From NCBI GenBank assembly GCA_037441475.1, contig JBBISB010000001.1, positions 126,418-158,417 of the forward strand: DNA of 32,000 nt. The letters run 5' to 3'. The translations under genes were made by a program, and so were the position numbers. Under the pieces are notes generated by a model. That model ran no database searches. It was not told where the DNA came from and saw only the letters and a program-made list of their open reading frames with translations. Below are positions 25,156 to 32,000 of the stretch, one piece after another (position 1 is the stretch's first letter; every line of letters begins with the position of its first letter). This stretch comes from Candidatus Iainarchaeum sp. GTDB lineage: Archaea > Iainarchaeota > Iainarchaeia > Iainarchaeales > CSSED10-239.

Positions 25156-28100
25156 TTATTTAAATTTATCAGGATTATGCCATAGTAATAACTCTGGGTT
25201 ATTTCCTGAAATATTGAAACATACATTTCCTGTAGGTATCTCCTTAAAGACATCATTCATTGTATTGTATGTTAATTTTGGTTCTACATTATTCATTACT
25301 AAATTATAGATCATGAAATTATTACTCACTACTGTTTTTGTAAATGCAGTTACATTCTTTGTATCTCCATTATTGATTTGTGGATTTGCATACAAAGCAA
25401 CTTGTAAAGATGTTTTATCTTTAAGTAAGAATAATCTATTCATGTTGTTTAAAACCTTAAGATCAGTGTTATTGTTTGTTTGAACTATCTTAAAGTTATA
25501 TGGTTTATTAAAGTAAAATGGTCTTGAGTCTATGAAAGTATAGTTTGCCATATCCTTAAAGCTAAAGATATATCCATCTTGTATTGTGTCTGTAGATGAA
25601 TAATCTGTAACATTATAAATTCCACTTAAGAAAGGAGCATTATATAATGTATTGCTTTTAGACATAGTATATCTAGGGTTAATTGGCATACTGAATAATA
25701 TGTTTTTATTATATTCATCAGGAAGTGCCCTTACAAGACTTCTTATCTTTATAACAACATTCTTACCAACACCTTGTGAAGCATGTATTAAATAAACACC
25801 TGGTTTTGAAACATTCATAGCTCTTTCATAAGTAAATTCATATGTTTTAACAACAGTACTACTGTTATATGTGTTTAAGATATTAACATTTAATGGATCA
25901 TTAGTTTGTCCAAACTTCTTCAAGCTTGAAGTAAACACTTGTGGAGAAGATCCAAAGTAAACTTCCATGTTTGCGTATACTTCTGCTCTTTGGTTATCAT
26001 TAGAAAATTTATTATGTAAATTATTTAAGAAATACTCAGCAGTGGTGTATTGATAGTCCCCAATTGTAACTACTGCTAAATAATCTCCGCTTGGATTATA
26101 TTCAAGACCCTTTGTCTTAATAATGGTTATTTCTCTTAACTCCTGAGGAATAGAATTAAGTAATTTTACAGCTTCATCAATATAACTTTGAAGAGTCTCT
26201 TTTCCTTGCCTATTAAAGTCTTCACAAACATCTCCGTCACCACAGAAATCAACTTTTATATCTGATCTTTTTATTGTTTGCCAATCTTTTTCAAAGTAGA
26301 TATCTCCAAGTTTTACATATTTTGAAGTATCTTTTAAACTATCTAAACCAACTACCTTCTTTTGTAAATAATCATAGAATTGCTCTTGATCACAGTACAT
26401 GTTATCACAAGAGGTTGCAGTTATCTTTGAAGAATCATACTCAAATAAGATTTTATCAAATCCATAATCGTTGTATGCTTCTAAGCCAGTTTGTCCAAGA
26501 TTTGAAGAAAGGTCAGGAGCTAAACATTTAAGAGCACCAGTAGCTATAGTTTCTCCATCAGCAGTTGGTGTTACAGAACCATCAATACTCCTATCACTTA
26601 CAGCTGTTGAAACACCAATAGAGATATGTGATTCTAATTTTGCTTTTTGATTCTCACTAGATGCCCAAAGCTCAAATACTTTATTAATATTAGAGGTCTG
26701 ACCTTCTTTGAAAAGATCATAAATTGTTATCTTACTATTAACAGCTAAAACATTATTAAATGAATCAACTGGTCTTGTAAAACATAATTTGAAAATATGT
26801 CTTGTTGGTTTTAAAAATCTAATACTTACCTTTAATGGATTATAAGTATCCTTAAGGTAATAAGTACCATTATCATTAATATAAGAGGTATCCTTAATAC
26901 CGTTTAATGGAAAGTCTTTAACATAACCAAAGAAACATCTAGTAACTTCAGTTTCTTGATCCATTCTTTTAAACTTATCAGCAGTCAATTGATTTTCAGG
27001 AACATGTATCATAACAGCTTTATTTTCAGAATCTAAGGTGTAAGTTAACTTAACAGATGTATCAACAAACATCATATCTTCATCAGTTACATTTTCATCA
27101 GTAAACTGTTTTATTAAATCCCAGTTATCCTTATTATCTAAGATAAGCCACTGGAAGTTATCTGTAAGTTGCATACCTACATTATTATAGATTAAAGAGG
27201 ATTGTCCGTGTGGTGGTTGAAGACCAACTTGAAGCACAAACTTTAAGTTAACTGTATCCTCTACATCTATTAATATTTTTCTAAAGGATGAAACTATTCC
27301 TGCTGCTAAAGAATACTGTGAATATTTATTTAGATATTCCTTTGCAGAAACTGTGTTTTTAATCTCTGGATTTCTTCTTAATGCAATTTCCCAATATTCA
27401 ATTGGTTTATTAGTTGTAAGTTCTGTAAAAGTATCCACCTTAATAGGCTGTATCTTACCTTGCATCTCTCCAACAGTTAAGAAAGAAACACCATCAAAAT
27501 CAAGATCCATTAAATCAAGATAACTAACTTCAACTAATCTATAACCATCAGCAAAGCAAGTGTTCATAACTTTTACCATTTGGTATTTAGGGTCAAGTAT
27601 ATTTGAAAAATCTAATTTTTGAGGAGTTACCTGTATACATTTTGAAGGCATAAAGCTTATTGGTAAAGTTACTGAAACAGGCACATTTCCTACAAGTCTA
27701 TAATTTGCTTTATTTACTAAAGATGGCTTAACATTAACAGGTATATTGAAAGTACCCATTGACTCTCCACCTAAGATAGTAGTTTCTTTACTTTCACCAG
27801 GCTCTAAACTAAACTCTGCATCAGAAGTAATTGTTACACCGTAAGATGCATCAAGCTTAATTGTAACACCCTCTAAACAGTTGTTCTTAATATAGAAAGG
27901 TCTTACAGGACAGTTCATGTTGTTTGACATACCCATATTACCATAGTTATCTTGAGGGTAACCTGACATAAAATTATAACTATTATAGTTACCAAAAGTA
28001 TTTTGATACTGTGCTGTTGGGAAGTTATAAGGGTTAACTGTTGATGCTTGAGGACCAGCATAACCAAATTGTCCAACTAAATTGTAATTTGGATTTCTGT

Positions 28101-31100
28101 ACCCTTGTTGTTGAGTAAAGTATCCTTGTCCTGCTTGATATGTATTATGAGGATTAAATTGATTATTCATGTTGTATGGAGTATTAAAGTTATTTCCTCC
28201 AAAGTAAGGATTATTGTATCCTGAGGAGAAGTTATTACCACCATAATATTGATTATAGTTATTAAATCCTGAAAACCAATTACATGCAAGAGCAGGAACT
28301 GGTTGTTTAGGCATTTCTATACATTCAGCATAGTTGTTAACAATAACCTCTAATGGAAGTCTTGCCTTAACTTCATCAACACCATTGATATTTCCTTTCT
28401 TAGATGTGAAATATATGGTTGGAGTCTTAATATTTGATGCTATTTTATAAGCTTTAAACTTTAATTGTAAAGTTGATTTTGCATTCTTTAAAAGAGAGGA
28501 TAATATAGAAACTTCTTTTAAGTCTTCTAAAATATATTCTTTACCAGAAACAACAATAGATAAAACACCAGCTTCAGATTCATTACCCCAATCTGCCATA
28601 GCGTTAATAGATGTTAAATCAATTGCAATTTGTCTTGAGGTACATTTATTCTCTACTGTAAAATCAAAAGTAACTGTTTTATCAGCCTCTGTTCTTATGG
28701 AAGCTGAACTTGGAAGTACTTTTAAACAATCTAAGGAATCAAGAGCATTTCCTAAAACAACTCTAACTGTTACTGGTATTGTAACAAGCCATGTCTTATT
28801 CATTTCTTCGCTTCTTATCCTGATTGCAACTTCGTTTTTAATAGTTTGTTGAGTATAAAGATTCATTCCTGCTTCTGTTAATGTAGCAGTTAAGGTTATA
28901 TCATTTTGAGAGTTTCCATTTATGGTATAATTTTCAATATCTAAAGCTAACTTTACATATTGATTATCTAAGCTTTGAGATACAGAAACTATAGATAAAG
29001 GAACATATGCTTCGTTAAATAAACTAAAGTTATAAACTTCTCTAACGTTTACTGATGAGTCTAAAGTTAAAGTTATTTCCTTAGGTATTGCAGTGATTAA
29101 TTGATCATCAACAACTAAGGAGATGTCTTTCATCCTATATTCATTCTTTGTAACAATTATTCTAACAACATCCCCTAAGTCAGTTGCTGGAAGAACATAA
29201 CCATACAAACCTTGTGAGTTTGTAAGAGATACAACTAAAGGATTATTGTTTAATAAAATATTAACATTCGCACCATTTACTGGCTTATTACTATGATCAG
29301 TAACAGCAATCATTAAATCATTTGCTATAAATGGAATAATTTTTCTTGGTACCATTTCAACATACATTTCTTTAGCTTCCTTAACATCTATAAAAATGTT
29401 TCTTGAAAACACTTCTTGTCCGTTTGAAACTATTGAAATTGTAATAACATCAGAAACATCATCAATAACCTTAAAATCAATATCTCCTGAAAGAATATCA
29501 TTAGAGGTTAAAGATCCAATCTCTATATTTGAAAACTCATTTCCTCTTAAAAGATTACCTGTAACTGAGTTGATCATGTATTCTTTTAAAACAACTGAGG
29601 AACCTGTTGTTATTACCATTGTTGAATTAGGAGCAATCTTTCCTTCTAAAACATTTAAGTTAAATGAAAGTCTATAATCATTATTAATCTGTGCATTATA
29701 TCTATCAATTATGTTTCTTGAAAGATTTGTTTGGTTGCTTGTTATTGTAAAAGCATAACATAAAAGTGAAGAACATTGGTTCTGTGAACCAGTAAACAAC
29801 ATTGCTTGCTTTGTTTGTGCATATAAATTTTGTTTTGTATTTCCAGAAGTATAAGAGGTATCAACAGGTGATCTTACTATACTTGTACCCTCATAAAACT
29901 CAGCCCTATAGTTTAAAGCTTGGTTTATAAAAGCACTCTCTAAAACAACAACATCAGCTTCAATTAAATAACTTCCTTCTAAAGGATTGTTAATGGTTAA
30001 GTTAAACCACTTTGCATTTCTTAAAGTCTTGTTTGAAAGATCAGTTGTTTGTCCTGAACATGGAGTGTATGAAGTTGATCCAATAGTTTCAGACTTAGCG
30101 TATCTTACTTCCTTAATAAATAAAGCATCCTCTAAAACAGTATAAGTGGTTGTACCACATACTGGGTTTGGTGCATTTCCTATTCTTAAGTGTGCTACAA
30201 CTTTTGAAAACTTTTTAGTAACATTTAATGAATATCTAGCAGTTACTTGCATACCTGGAGTTACAGAGTTTATTTTTTCTCCTAAAGCATTATAGAAACC
30301 TAAAAACTCAATACCTGATGTTTGTGAAATTCTTGATGGTAAAGTAAATGAAAGATTAACAATCTCATTTGCATTAATCTCATATCTTGAAGTTATAAAT
30401 TTAGAATCAAAATTATCAATAACAAAGTATACTTGCTTATCTGCTCTTATCTTTATTAAAGTAAAACCCTCTGCGTTTGTAGATGTGGTTTTATCTGCTA
30501 AGATACTATCGTTTAAAGTATCATAAACATATACGTTTCCTTGGTAGAAATCCCCAAACTCAGTTTTTAAAGTTAAGTTAAAGGTTCCTTCTCCAATTGT
30601 CATCTTTATTACTTGTTCATTTATTTGTTGTTCAACAATTCTAAATGGATTTGTAAACTCAGAAGTAAATTGTCCTTTAGATGAATCAAGCTTATATGTT
30701 CTACTTATATCTAAGTTTGTTAAAACAGCTTTACCATAAACATCAGCAGTTATTGTTTGAAGAATAATGTTTTCTTCAGCATCCCATAGTCTAATGGTTG
30801 CAAAATCAACTGGTTTAAGTAAATTATCTTGAACTGTTATAACAAGGCTTCTTAAGTTTTCATTAGTTATTGGGTTTAAAGAGATTTGTTTTACAGAGTC
30901 ACTTATTCTTAAGTTATTCTCTGTTTTTAAAATATAATTAGGATTATTAAAAACAACCTTGTAAGTTATGTTTTCTTCAACACCGAAATTTACAAGACCT
31001 TCTTTGTTTGAGATTAATGTTTTTACAAGTGTGCTTGTTTTGTATAAAGAAACTGAAACATTTTCAATAGCTTCTTTTGTTTTAGAATCAATTACTTTAA

Positions 31101-32000
31101 ATTTAAGTTGACCAATATATGCCTTTGTTAAAAGAACATCTTTATTTTGAAGAGCTGAATCAACAATTGTTATTTGTATATTTTCAAGTTCTGTTATTGG
31201 TCTGTATCTATCATCATTATCATATATAACAACTCTGTATGTTCCTATTGTTATGTTTTCAAAAAGAACAATACCGTTTGTGTTTGTAGTTGCTTCTCTT
31301 ACAACTTGACTTTGCATATTAACAATTGAAACACTAACATTTGAAATTGGTGTTTTTAAATCATTATCTAAAACTTTAATCGATGCATTACCTGTTTTCT
31401 TTTCTGCAAAGCTTAACTCAACATCTCCTGATAAACCATCTTCGTTTACTGCAACAGAACCAACTGCATTAACTGTGGATGATTCTATTGAAACTTGTAA
31501 GTAACCACAATCAGCAGGTATGTCTGTTAAGGTTAAAGAACCGTCGTTTGTTAAAAGATTATTTTTTCTATAATTACTGTTATTTGAACAAGTGATTGTT
31601 GAAACTGTTAAAGGAGAATTATATAGTTCGTTATTTGATTTAAAATATATTGTTTTTGAAACTGTACTAACTGTTAATTTAAGATAAACTGGATAGTTAT
31701 TCTTTTTACTAAAGTTAATAGTTAAAGGAGTCTCTATTTGGTATTTAGAACTTTTAATACCTAAAGGCATTTCCTCTTTCTTAATACCAGTAACCTCTGC
31801 TATTCCTAAAGAGTTTGTTACAAGAAGTTTTGGAGAGTTGTTAAATAATATTTCTAAACTCTCATTTGAGATTGGTTTATTTTGGGAGTCTACAAAAGTT
31901 AAAGAATAGGTCTGATCAGTAACAACTGAAGATCCAAATAATAAGAATGCTAAAAATACTATTAATAAAAGTATTATAAGATTGAATAATAGGAAGGTTG
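25156..32000 (-). CDS. giant surface protein, paralog A, 5'-partial (>=2280 aa): true start lies beyond the window edge
   Basis: The reading frame stays open from 31770 up to position 31998 (my own translation). The extension encodes TFLLFNLIILLLIVFLAFLLFGSS (a TM anchor like the paralogs) followed by a first beta-sandwich repeat. Downstream lie CarboxypepD_reg-like repeats (SIKVLDNDLKTPISNVSVSIV), Cys-bracketed domains, an N/Q/Y/G-rich segment and a divergent short C-terminal module (PGVYLI, FSMPINP, VCFNISG). TAA stop at 25156-25158. Confidence 0.9.
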   Translation of the reverse strand, partial: TFLLFNLIILLLIVFLAFLLFGSSVVTDQTYSLTFVDSQNKPISNESLEILFNNSPKLLVTNSLGIAEVTGIKKEEMPLGIKSSKYQIETPLTINFSKKNNYPVYLKLTVSTVSKTIYFKSNNELYNSPLTVSTITCSNNSNYRKNNLLTNDGSLTLTDIPADCGYLQVSIESSTVNAVGSVAVNEDGLSGDVELSFAEKKTGNASIKVLDNDLKTPISNVSVSIVNMQSQVVREATTNTNGIVLFENITIGTYRVVIYDNDDRYRPITELENIQITIVDSALQNKDVLLTKAYIGQLKFKVIDSKTKEAIENVSVSLYKTSTLVKTLISNKEGLVNFGVEENITYKVVFNNPNYILKTENNLRISDSVKQISLNPITNENLRSLVITVQDNLLKPVDFATIRLWDAEENIILQTITADVYGKAVLTNLDISRTYKLDSSKGQFTSEFTNPFRIVEQQINEQVIKMTIGEGTFNLTLKTEFGDFYQGNVYVYDTLNDSILADKTTSTNAEGFTLIKIRADKQVYFVIDNFDSKFITSRYEINANEIVNLSFTLPSRISQTSGIEFLGFYNALGEKINSVTPGMQVTARYSLNVTKKFSKVVAHLRIGNAPNPVCGTTTYTVLEDALFIKEVRYAKSETIGSTSYTPCSGQTTDLSNKTLRNAKWFNLTINNPLEGSYLIEADVVVLESAFINQALNYRAEFYEGTSIVRSPVDTSYTSGNTKQNLYAQTKQAMLFTGSQNQCSSLLCYAFTITSNQTNLSRNIIDRYNAQINNDYRLSFNLNVLEGKIAPNSTMVITTGSSVVLKEYMINSVTGNLLRGNEFSNIEIGSLTSNDILSGDIDFKVIDDVSDVITISIVSNGQEVFSRNIFIDVKEAKEMYVEMVPRKIIPFIANDLMIAVTDHSNKPVNGANVNILLNNNPLVVSLTNSQGLYGYVLPATDLGDVVRIIVTKNEYRMKDISLVVDDQLITAIPKEITLTLDSSVNVREVYNFSLFNEAYVPLSIVSVSQSLDNQYVKLALDIENYTINGNSQNDITLTATLTEAGMNLYTQQTIKNEVAIRIRSEEMNKTWLVTIPVTVRVVLGNALDSLDCLKVLPSSASIRTEADKTVTFDFTVENKCTSRQIAIDLTSINAMADWGNESEAGVLSIVVSGKEYILEDLKEVSILSSLLKNAKSTLQLKFKAYKIASNIKTPTIYFTSKKGNINGVDEVKARLPLEVIVNNYAECIEMPKQPVPALACNWFSGFNNYNQYYGGNNFSSGYNNPYFGGNNFNTPYNMNNQFNPHNTYQAGQGYFTQQQGYRNPNYNLVGQFGYAGPQASTVNPYNFPTAQYQNTFGNYNSYNFMSGYPQDNYGNMGMSNNMNCPVRPFYIKNNCLEGVTIKLDASYGVTITSDAEFSLEPGESKETTILGGESMGTFNIPVNVKPSLVNKANYRLVGNVPVSVTLPISFMPSKCIQVTPQKLDFSNILDPKYQMVKVMNTCFADGYRLVEVSYLDLMDLDFDGVSFLTVGEMQGKIQPIKVDTFTELTTNKPIEYWEIALRRNPEIKNTVSAKEYLNKYSQYSLAAGIVSSFRKILIDVEDTVNLKFVLQVGLQPPHGQSSLIYNNVGMQLTDNFQWLILDNKDNWDLIKQFTDENVTDEDMMFVDTSVKLTYTLDSENKAVMIHVPENQLTADKFKRMDQETEVTRCFFGYVKDFPLNGIKDTSYINDNGTYYLKDTYNPLKVSIRFLKPTRHIFKLCFTRPVDSFNNVLAVNSKITIYDLFKEGQTSNINKVFELWASSENQKAKLESHISIGVSTAVSDRSIDGSVTPTADGETIATGALKCLAPDLSSNLGQTGLEAYNDYGFDKILFEYDSSKITATSCDNMYCDQEQFYDYLQKKVVGLDSLKDTSKYVKLGDIYFEKDWQTIKRSDIKVDFCGDGDVCEDFNRQGKETLQSYIDEAVKLLNSIPQELREITIIKTKGLEYNPSGDYLAVVTIGDYQYTTAEYFLNNLHNKFSNDNQRAEVYANMEVYFGSSPQVFTSSLKKFGQTNDPLNVNILNTYNSSTVVKTYEFTYERAMNVSKPGVYLIHASQGVGKNVVIKIRSLVRALPDEYNKNILFSMPINPRYTMSKSNTLYNAPFLSGIYNVTDYSSTDTIQDGYIFSFKDMANYTFIDSRPFYFNKPYNFKIVQTNNNTDLKVLNNMNRLFLLKDKTSLQVALYANPQINNGDTKNVTAFTKTVVSNNFMIYNLVMNNVEPKLTYNTMNDVFKEIPTGNVCFNISGNNPELLLWHNPDKFK
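25159..26526 (-). other. shared C-terminal module, short and most divergent form (aa ~1749-2204 of paralog A)
   Basis: CLAPD...ILFEYDSSKITATSCDNMYCDQEQFYDYLQKK aligns with LDW...YCDATQ. Also PGVYLIHA, LFSMPINP, DVFKEIPTGNVCFNISG. Confidence 0.55.
27913..28272 (-). repeat. N/Q/Y/G/F/P-rich low-complexity (prion-like) segment, aa 1167-1286 of paralog A
   Basis: SGFNNYNQYYGGNNFSSGYNNPYFGGNNFNTPYNMNNQFNPHNTYQAGQGYFTQQQGYRNPNYNLVGQFGYAGPQASTVNPYNFPTAQYQNTFGNYNSYNFMSGYPQDNYGNMGMSNNMN. It contains only one R, one D and one H, and no K or E. Conserved Cys flank it (ALACNWF ... NCPVRP). Confidence 0.85.
30337..31925 (-). repeat. protein-level tandem array of about 80-95-aa CarboxypepD_reg/prealbumin-like beta-sandwich repeats (paralog A)
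   Basis: Recurrent pattern h-x-h-x-V-x-D-(x)n-P-h-x-x-A/V-x-V-x-h...T-(D/N)-x-x-G-x-h-x-h...G-x-Y-x-h. Examples: GNASIKVLDNDLKTPISNVSVSIVN..TNTNGIVLFENITIGTYRVV; LKFKVIDSKTKEAIENVSVSLY..NKEGLVNF; LVITVQDNLLKPVDFATIRLWD. Boundaries are approximate. Confidence 0.7.

Follow-up and report, generated by a model that had tools for sequence, protein, structure and literature searches.

An aromatic-rich, charge-poor loop conserved in giant surface proteins of Iainarchaeota, and its possible role as a sticky contact pad

The mussel foot proteins Mfp-3/5 and the cohesive FG-nucleoporins are disordered, rich in Gly, Asn and Tyr or in Phe, and bring about wet adhesion or form a cohesive mesh by weak aromatic contacts; the former rely on 3,4-dihydroxyphenylalanine (DOPA) and cationic residues, while FG domains have sparser Phe and are intracellular. 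For prion-like domains of the FUS/hnRNPA1 type Tyr is described as a strong driver (10.1101/2021.01.01.425046), and an even spacing of their aromatic residues is considered to promote liquid-like association while preventing aggregation (PMC8638251). Among prokaryotic adhesins, Bap1 of V. cholerae carries a 57-residue aromatic loop within a beta-prism, and this loop by itself suffices for nonspecific adhesion to lipids and abiotic surfaces (PMC10102183). Finally, the giant-gene locus of Candidatus Forterrea multitransposorum, an archaeon originating from deep subsurface aquifers and described as having a minimal metabolism, has been proposed to serve cell-cell interaction (PMC5905446). Here we analyse a stretch of 32,000 nucleotides of Candidatus Iainarchaeum sp. 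(GenBank assembly GCA_037441475.1, contig JBBISB010000001.1, positions 126,418 to 158,417; the window in the following, position 1 being its first letter), which contains the same row of giant genes, and within it a low-complexity loop of 120 amino acids (aa) in a 2321-aa protein that is the orthologue of one of the Forterrea giants. An earlier note on this stretch, made from the letters alone, had singled out the segment as prion-like. Our results suggest that the conserved signal is a charge-poor aromatic 'sticker-and-spacer' segment, and we favour, with moderate confidence, a role of the loop as a reversible, multivalent sticky contact pad on the surface giant. We found no published description of the loop, and the paper on the Forterrea giants contains neither a domain analysis of these proteins nor a mention of it (PMC5905446).

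The element in question is the following.

27913..28272, minus strand: low-complexity loop, aa 1284-1403 of the host protein, by minus-strand translation; predicted disordered

Translation of the minus strand yields the 120-residue, almost uncharged segment rich in N, Y, G, Q and F that the earlier note had described, although the numbering given there, aa 1167-1286, takes an internal Met at 31770 as residue 1. The loop is made up of 29 Asn, 17 Tyr, 16 Gly, 12 Gln, 10 Phe, 8 Pro, 7 Ser, 6 Thr, 5 Met, 4 Ala and 2 Val residues and one each of Leu, His, Arg and Asp, whereas Lys, Glu, Ile, Cys and Trp are absent; the residue counts thus bear out both the single R, D and H and the lack of K and E claimed before. 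Tyr and Phe together (27 residues) account for 22.5% of the loop, N+Q for 34%, and charged residues for 2 of the 120, and 92% of all residues are N, Q, Y, F, G, S, T, P or M. The rest of the host protein contains 9% N, 4.7% Y, 6.9% K and 5.4% E. The short repeats reported in the note (GGNNF, NPY, QGY and YN.Y) occur twice each, and the flanking sequences are likewise as reported, ...ALACNWF upstream and NCPVRPFYIKNNC... downstream. When 156,981 windows of 80 aa from the 646 open reading frames (ORFs) of the genome were compared, only this segment combined at most one charge with 59 of 80 residues being N, Q, Y, G or F, the runner-up reaching 44. The composition of the loop is far from chance within the 769-kb genome. 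The loop alone gave no sequence match in the PDB (best E value 1.9) and no match in Pfam. It contains one N-glycosylation sequon, which is no different from shuffled versions, and we have dropped the idea of a glycan shield for this reason.

How does such a loop compare with the systems named above? With the low-complexity domains of FUS and hnRNPA1 it shares predicted disorder, near-zero charge, G/S/N/Q spacers and an even spacing of Tyr and Phe, and some relatives of the host protein even contain GYGGYGG and SYGGY runs. The aromatic density of the FUS and hnRNPA1 domains is about 13-14%, and that of the loop, at 22%, is higher. Different from these domains, however, the loop is archaeal and predicted to be extracellular, it appears to be tethered at both ends in an immunoglobulin (Ig)-like domain, and it has no RNA-binding context and no homology with them. 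The closest functional analogue in a prokaryotic adhesin would be the Bap1 loop, likewise an aromatic-rich, structurally unresolved or disordered loop inside a beta-rich domain of a surface adhesin, provided that the geometry we propose for the host domain is correct. Then again, the two share no sequence similarity, the host fold is predicted to be an Ig-like sandwich rather than a beta-prism, and the 57 aa of the Bap1 loop include 12.7% Lys and 8.8% each of Trp and Tyr (PMC10102183), as compared to 120 aa with no Lys or Trp, one Arg and 22% Tyr+Phe here. Yeast Q/N prion domains and the archaeal candidates found with PLAAC, in surveys that took in Diapherotrites in bulk (10.1101/2020.07.20.212902), are Q/N/Y/G-rich, charge-poor and predicted disordered as is the loop; unlike in yeast-type prion domains, Q/N is not conserved in the family, the aromatic residues are dense and even, and the location would be extracellular. 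The Mfps, which have also been invoked for Bap1 (PMC10102183), share with the loop the richness in G, N and Y, and the FG-nucleoporin domains that in F, but neither is pinned in an Ig-like domain by disulfides as the loop appears to be. What seems to be new is therefore the setting of this aromatic sticker-and-spacer or adhesive loop, outside the cell of an archaeon and pinned within an Ig-like domain.

An exhaustive HMMER search with aa 1000-1800 of the host protein returned 110 family representatives, one per 50%-identity cluster, and hidden Markov models of the two flanking domains placed both flanks in 87 of these. A low-complexity loop lies between the flanks in all 87; it measures 34-172 aa, apart from three longer cases in which the upstream border is poorly placed. 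The two-domain module with its loop was found in 161 of 201 genomes sampled from the phylum, in 55 of the 58 high-quality ones and in 68 of the 76 genera, and the loop thus occurs in almost the whole phylum Iainarchaeota. In 66 full-length relatives it starts at aa 1294 +/- 14 and is followed by 1104 +/- 166 aa. The distance along the chain from the anchor to the loop is tightly conserved.

The composition of the loops was analysed in the 68 best-delimited representatives, with kinship ignored (CV, coefficient of variation).

Loop length: median 93 aa, CV 0.29
Aromatic residues: median 21.6%, CV 0.15
Charged residues: median 5%, CV 0.73
N+Q: median 18%, CV 0.40
G: median 15%, CV 0.41
S+T: median 17%, CV 0.29

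The remainder of these proteins is 8.6 +/- 0.8% aromatic. The N+Q content of the relatives' loops ranges from 3 to 39% and trades off with that of G, some lineages having GYGGYGGYGG or SYGGY-type sequence in place of N/Q. Moreover, the N/Q share correlates with an AT proxy calculated from the protein outside the loop (rho 0.43, p 3e-4, kinship ignored), the corresponding values being rho -0.25 for G and rho -0.07 for the aromatic content. Because N/Q tracks AT while the aromatic residues do not, we consider the 'prion' look of the loop to be the local spacer flavour of a 28% G+C genome. The aromatic residues are also evenly spaced: the variance of the gaps between them is 4.5 in the loop as compared to 13.3 in shuffles (P=0.002), and 88% of 67 relatives show z<0 (Wilcoxon 6e-10). 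The best conserved positions of the loop are aromatic residues and Gly, and the least conserved are P and Q. Judged by these sequence comparisons, the conserved signal appears to be a charge-poor sticker-and-spacer segment with about 21% evenly spaced aromatic residues. The view of the earlier note that the segment is not just a product of genome AT bias accordingly holds for the aromatic content, which is independent of the AT proxy, but not for the N/Q flavour, which is shaped by it; composition is conserved, but the quantity that is kept is the aromatic one and not the Q/N content. 'Prion-like' calls in AT-rich genomes can thus mask another conserved signal, in this case aromatic density and spacing.

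Orthologues at 38-71% identity all carry the segment, in lengths of 106-137 aa, and their identity is about as high in the loop as in the flanking domains, 71% versus 68-71% in one instance. In three orthologue pairs the ratio of nonsynonymous to synonymous substitution rates (dN/dS) is 0.29, 0.14 and 0.23 for the loop and 0.07, 0.12 and 0.28 for the flanks. Strain variation was followed in the Ca. Forterrea orthologue, whose 90%-identity cluster has 11 members, seen on about 50 contigs from several sources. They contain no indel in the loop and fall into two haplotypes that differ by 11 loop substitutions (9.2%, versus about 3.7% elsewhere in the protein), most of which preserve composition (Y/F, S/T, V/I). 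The loop is under purifying selection which is somewhat relaxed at short range. Tandem Repeats Finder detected no tandem repeat in 27700-28500 even at a score of 30; this, the absence of strain indels, the dN/dS of 0.14-0.29 and the family-wide retention of the loop led us to reject a slippage insert. The comparison of orthologues proposed in the earlier note thereby excludes a strain-specific slippage product without compositional conservation, as the aromatic-rich, charge-poor composition is kept.

The structural setting of the loop was derived from an AlphaFold2 model and from the distribution of cysteines.

28324..28734, minus strand: preceding Ig-like domain, aa 1130-1266, predicted all-beta with a predicted local distance difference test (pLDDT) score of 86-93
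27640..28323, minus strand: Ig-like (ASH/PapD-like) beta-sandwich, aa 1267-1494, predicted by AlphaFold2 and Foldseek to carry the loop between its first strands
28321..28323, minus strand: outer Cys C1267 (AECIEMP), first of the canonical pair of the host domain, present in 68 of 68 representatives
27877..27879, minus strand: outer Cys C1415 (IKNNC), second of the canonical pair by motif spacing, present in 68 of 68 representatives
28282..28284, minus strand: inner Cys C1280 (ALAC), at the N-terminal base of the loop, by co-occurrence with C1404
27910..27912, minus strand: inner Cys C1404 (NMNC), at the C-terminal base of the loop, by co-occurrence with C1280

The model has pLDDT values of 21-27 for aa 1281-1403 as opposed to 86-93 in the flanks. 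It places one strand just before the loop (aa 1275-1279) and one just after it (aa 1407-1413, the region after the loop having pLDDT 82-92), and in Foldseek it matches ASH/PapD-like and pilin-type Ig-like sandwiches with E values of 1e-8 to 1e-5. At the start of each neighbouring domain a C-[IL]-x-[VM]-x-P motif is followed 27-28 aa later by N-x-C (C1132/C1160 and C1495/C1522), whereas in the loop-bearing domain the same motifs are 148 aa apart (C1267/C1415), that is 28 + 120. The inner pair C1280/C1404 is complete in 47 and altogether missing in 21 of the 68 representatives, none of which has a single one of the two (kinship ignored). The similarity of the loop-deleted domain to its neighbours is weak by profile, with P=0.003 in hhalign for an alignment to the preceding domain that runs across the junction, and 0.41 in the other comparison. 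Taking the adjoining strands, the Cys spacing of 148 as compared to 27-28 aa and the nested Cys pairs together, the segment is probably a side loop that leaves a single Ig-like domain between its first strands and is disordered throughout; one or two disulfides would close it at the base, probably the two nested ones C1267-C1415 and C1280-C1404. The earlier note had placed it between domains, and the model speaks against this. The 'flexible sticky linker' considered there agrees with the predicted disorder (pLDDT 21-27), but the segment would be a side loop rather than a linker in series. Since the ends of the loop are apparently held together it would carry no tension along the stalk, and we have rejected an elastic linker on these grounds.

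With respect to the oxidation of Cys pairs in the ectodomain, the genome encodes a membrane-anchored DsbA-like protein of the thioredoxin fold with a CHFC motif (C1:508477-509136, minus strand; Pfam Thioredoxin_4, E 6.5e-34), the match holding one in-frame TAA. We count this CxxC protein in favour of a disulfide-pinned loop because it bears on that oxidation. VKOR was not found in the genome search.

The arrangement that we infer, from the side-loop geometry and the disulfides to the stickiness and its partner, would be as follows. About 27 Tyr and Phe stickers, on average one per about four residues, would lie amid uncharged N/Q/G/S/T/P spacers in a loop that bulges from an Ig-like domain of the ectodomain, stapled at its base by C1267-C1415 and C1280-C1404, and that hangs off the side of the stalk as a collapsed sticky pad. 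Many weak aromatic (pi-pi and hydrophobic) contacts together with hydrogen bonds could then give rise to reversible multivalent adhesion. The partner may be the same loop on neighbouring giants, resulting in cohesion or clustering of the surface coat, or alternatively a foreign surface such as the envelope of another cell or lipids; a role in self-association or adhesion is plausible by analogy with the systems described above. Several points weigh against this proposal. The alignment underlying the AlphaFold2 model is shallow (13 rows). Between close strains the loop diverges about 2.5 times as fast as the remainder of the protein, so that part of its conservation may be one of composition alone. 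It also lacks the cationic residues that accompany the aromatic ones in Bap1 and in mussel adhesives, there being no Lys and one Arg, and a disordered uncharged loop could act purely sterically.

DPANN archaea are believed to lead a life attached to other cells. The loop is a short and clearly bounded part of the largest surface proteins of the DPANN archaea studied here, and it occurs almost throughout their phylum. Should it prove cohesive or adhesive, archaea would employ outside the cell the grammar of stickers and spacers that is known from intracellular condensates of eukaryotes, and the loop would provide a handle on the function of a giant-gene cluster that fills about 5% of these tiny genomes. 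As the loop sits at one and the same chain distance from the anchor in each copy of this giant (aa 1294 +/- 14 among relatives from different 50%-identity clusters), one may go further and imagine that the loops of neighbouring giants coalesce into a two-dimensional extracellular condensate or hydrogel, a 'canopy' that would form either a cohesive mesh above the membrane in the manner of FG-nucleoporins or a layer of glue at the zone of contact with a host cell. We regard this extension as unlikely; if true, this would be the first case of a structural sticker-and-spacer condensate outside a prokaryotic cell.

But would a loop that merely fills space not do as well? A passive element, be it an entropic bristle, a steric bumper, or an elastic linker or hinge joining the proximal stalk to the distal region, would require no specific stickiness and would be in keeping with the predicted disorder, with the variation in loop length across the family (34-172 aa) and with the location of the loop, about 55% of the way along the chain, where a conserved stalk gives way to a C-terminal part that varies. 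A bristle, however, would not need 21% evenly spaced aromatic residues maintained with a CV of 0.15 across 50%-identity clusters, and aromatic-rich uncharged chains are expected to collapse rather than to swell. As for a linker or hinge, the ends of the loop seem to be joined, judging by the nested Cys pairs and the adjacent strands, so that tension would be neither transmitted nor buffered. We therefore hold a passive role to be rather improbable, though worth keeping in mind.

A true amyloid or prion-like element would convert to cross-beta structure and template its neighbours, leading to amyloid-like adhesin clusters, as has been proposed for fungal Als adhesins, or to a heritable state. 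The scoring for prion propensity and disorder suggested in the earlier note does give values above background. With a PAPA-like score and FoldIndex, both our own re-implementations (cut-off 0.05 for PAPA, values below 0 taken as disordered for FoldIndex), the loop reaches a peak of 0.142 at aa 1312 and FoldIndex is negative over aa 1288-1397. By its PAPA-like score the host protein ranks second among the 646 ORFs, and it has the longest positive stretch of all. The likeness to yeast prion composition that had been noted is thus borne out by simple predictors. For Q/N-rich prions the Michelitsch-Weissman threshold is at least 30 Q+N in a window of 80 residues, and the maximum of 29 in the loop lies just below it. 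Furthermore, archaeal PLAAC candidates are capable of Congo red binding, and proteins of the membrane and of cell-wall adhesion are over-represented among them (10.1101/2020.07.20.212902). Against these indications stands that the Q/N content is not conserved, some relatives having GYGGYGG-type spacers instead, that the even spacing of the aromatic residues is a pattern linked to the avoidance of aggregation (PMC8638251), that a Pro or Gly occurs about every five residues with no P/G-free run longer than 9, and that aliphatic residues are few (two Val, one Leu, four Ala and no Ile); AlphaFold2 predicts no structure for the loop, and the PAPA-like score comes, as mentioned, from our own re-implementation. 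Heritable prion behaviour in particular is implausible, as the segment is predicted to be extracellular and tethered, which would exclude cytoplasmic inheritance. The amyloid-like behaviour envisaged by the earlier note is thus disfavoured, and we consider it very unlikely.

The top PAPA-like score of the genome (0.244) belongs to a protein of 131 aa (C1:315019-315414, minus strand) which has a hydrophobic helix at its N-terminus and a tail of about 95 aa in which hardly any residues other than Y, S, T, P and N occur. Its gene lies directly upstream of that of a secreted-looking protein of 1034 aa (C1:311879-314983). The 131-aa protein might be a soluble partner for tyrosine-rich loops.

The Tyr residues could also be substrates of covalent chemistry, being cross-linked to di-tyrosine or modified to DOPA, by sulfation or by O-glycosylation, for a durable matrix such as those of resilin and the mussel foot proteins. 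The loop contains 14% Tyr and 37% G+N, and its G/N/Y-rich make-up resembles that of mussel and cuticle proteins. Tyr-specific chemistry would not tolerate the free exchange of Y and F that is observed, however, and there is only one N-glycosylation sequon; a search for tyrosinase gave no match in the genome, but as it gave none in the control genomes either, it carries no information. In addition, the genome comprises only 769 kb, and its sequenced relative, described as having a minimal metabolism, came from deep subsurface aquifers (PMC5905446). Such a role appears highly improbable to us. Compositional junk, that is a selectively neutral insertion which a surface loop tolerates and which owes its make-up to AT-rich codon bias, might be suspected from the 28% G+C of the genome, the correlation of the N/Q share with the AT proxy and the faster divergence of the loop between close strains, but is largely refuted by the conservation data and left with scarcely any likelihood, given that the loop is kept at the same site in every representative examined and in 68 of 76 genera, with a dN/dS of 0.14-0.29 and neither strain indels nor DNA repeats, that G, Q and P are enriched though their codons are not AT-rich, and that aromatic content and spacing are conserved.

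The sticky pad that we favour would thus be part of a giant surface protein with the following features.

25156..32000, minus strand: host gene of the 2321-aa giant surface protein, start codon at 32121 beyond the window; an ORF, with an identical protein (P0003) in the database
31927..31995, minus strand: predicted N-terminal signal-anchor transmembrane helix, aa ~43-65; the highest Kyte-Doolittle 19-residue windows of the protein begin at aa 43-45

A 42-residue tail precedes the hydrophobic helix, all 22 Cys residues are located C-terminal of it, and because of this N-terminal signal-anchor helix the rest of the protein is predicted to be outside the cell. Pfam recognizes in the host protein only Ig-like domains of the prealbumin-like and CarboxypepD_reg type. 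The genome consists of two contigs (769 kb, 28% G+C), and the very long ORFs of the window stand in a row and share the minus strand; six of them encode 816-2426 aa. With its length of more than 1,800 aa, its N-terminal anchor, its position in a row of giant genes and its orthology to a Ca. Forterrea multitransposorum protein (69-71% identity; CP045477.1), the host protein fits the Forterrea-type giants.

The paralogues within the window have no such loop, in agreement with the earlier note, which had seen nothing equivalent in the other paralogues. This does not extend to a 2696-aa paralogue encoded just beyond the end of the window (C1:160677-168767, minus strand; about 34260-42350 in window numbering), which carries a weaker equivalent at aa ~1172-1256 with 17.6% aromatic residues, 29% S+T and 9 charges in 85 aa. 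It sits between DCIEITP and FFIIKNNC and thus in the same motif frame as the loop of the host protein; the loop-bearing domain is therefore older than the duplication that gave the two giants.

Two further observations concern repetitive sequence elsewhere in the genome. Two proteins with N-terminal hydrophobic (pilin-like or anchor) starts, encoded at C1:203786-205468 and C1:652339-655137 (both plus strand), contain tandem 'WNVSNVTNM..MF..A..FNQPIG' repeats which look like the BspA/DUF285 type. Finally, a 625-aa protein (C1:226341-228218, minus strand), taken from the look of its N-terminal sequence for a putative DnaG-like primase, contains an insert of about 120 aa composed of short repeats rich in N, R, D and H (...DRNNRHDRNNRDNRQNNHDRNNH...), a charged low-complexity sequence of a kind quite unlike the uncharged loop.

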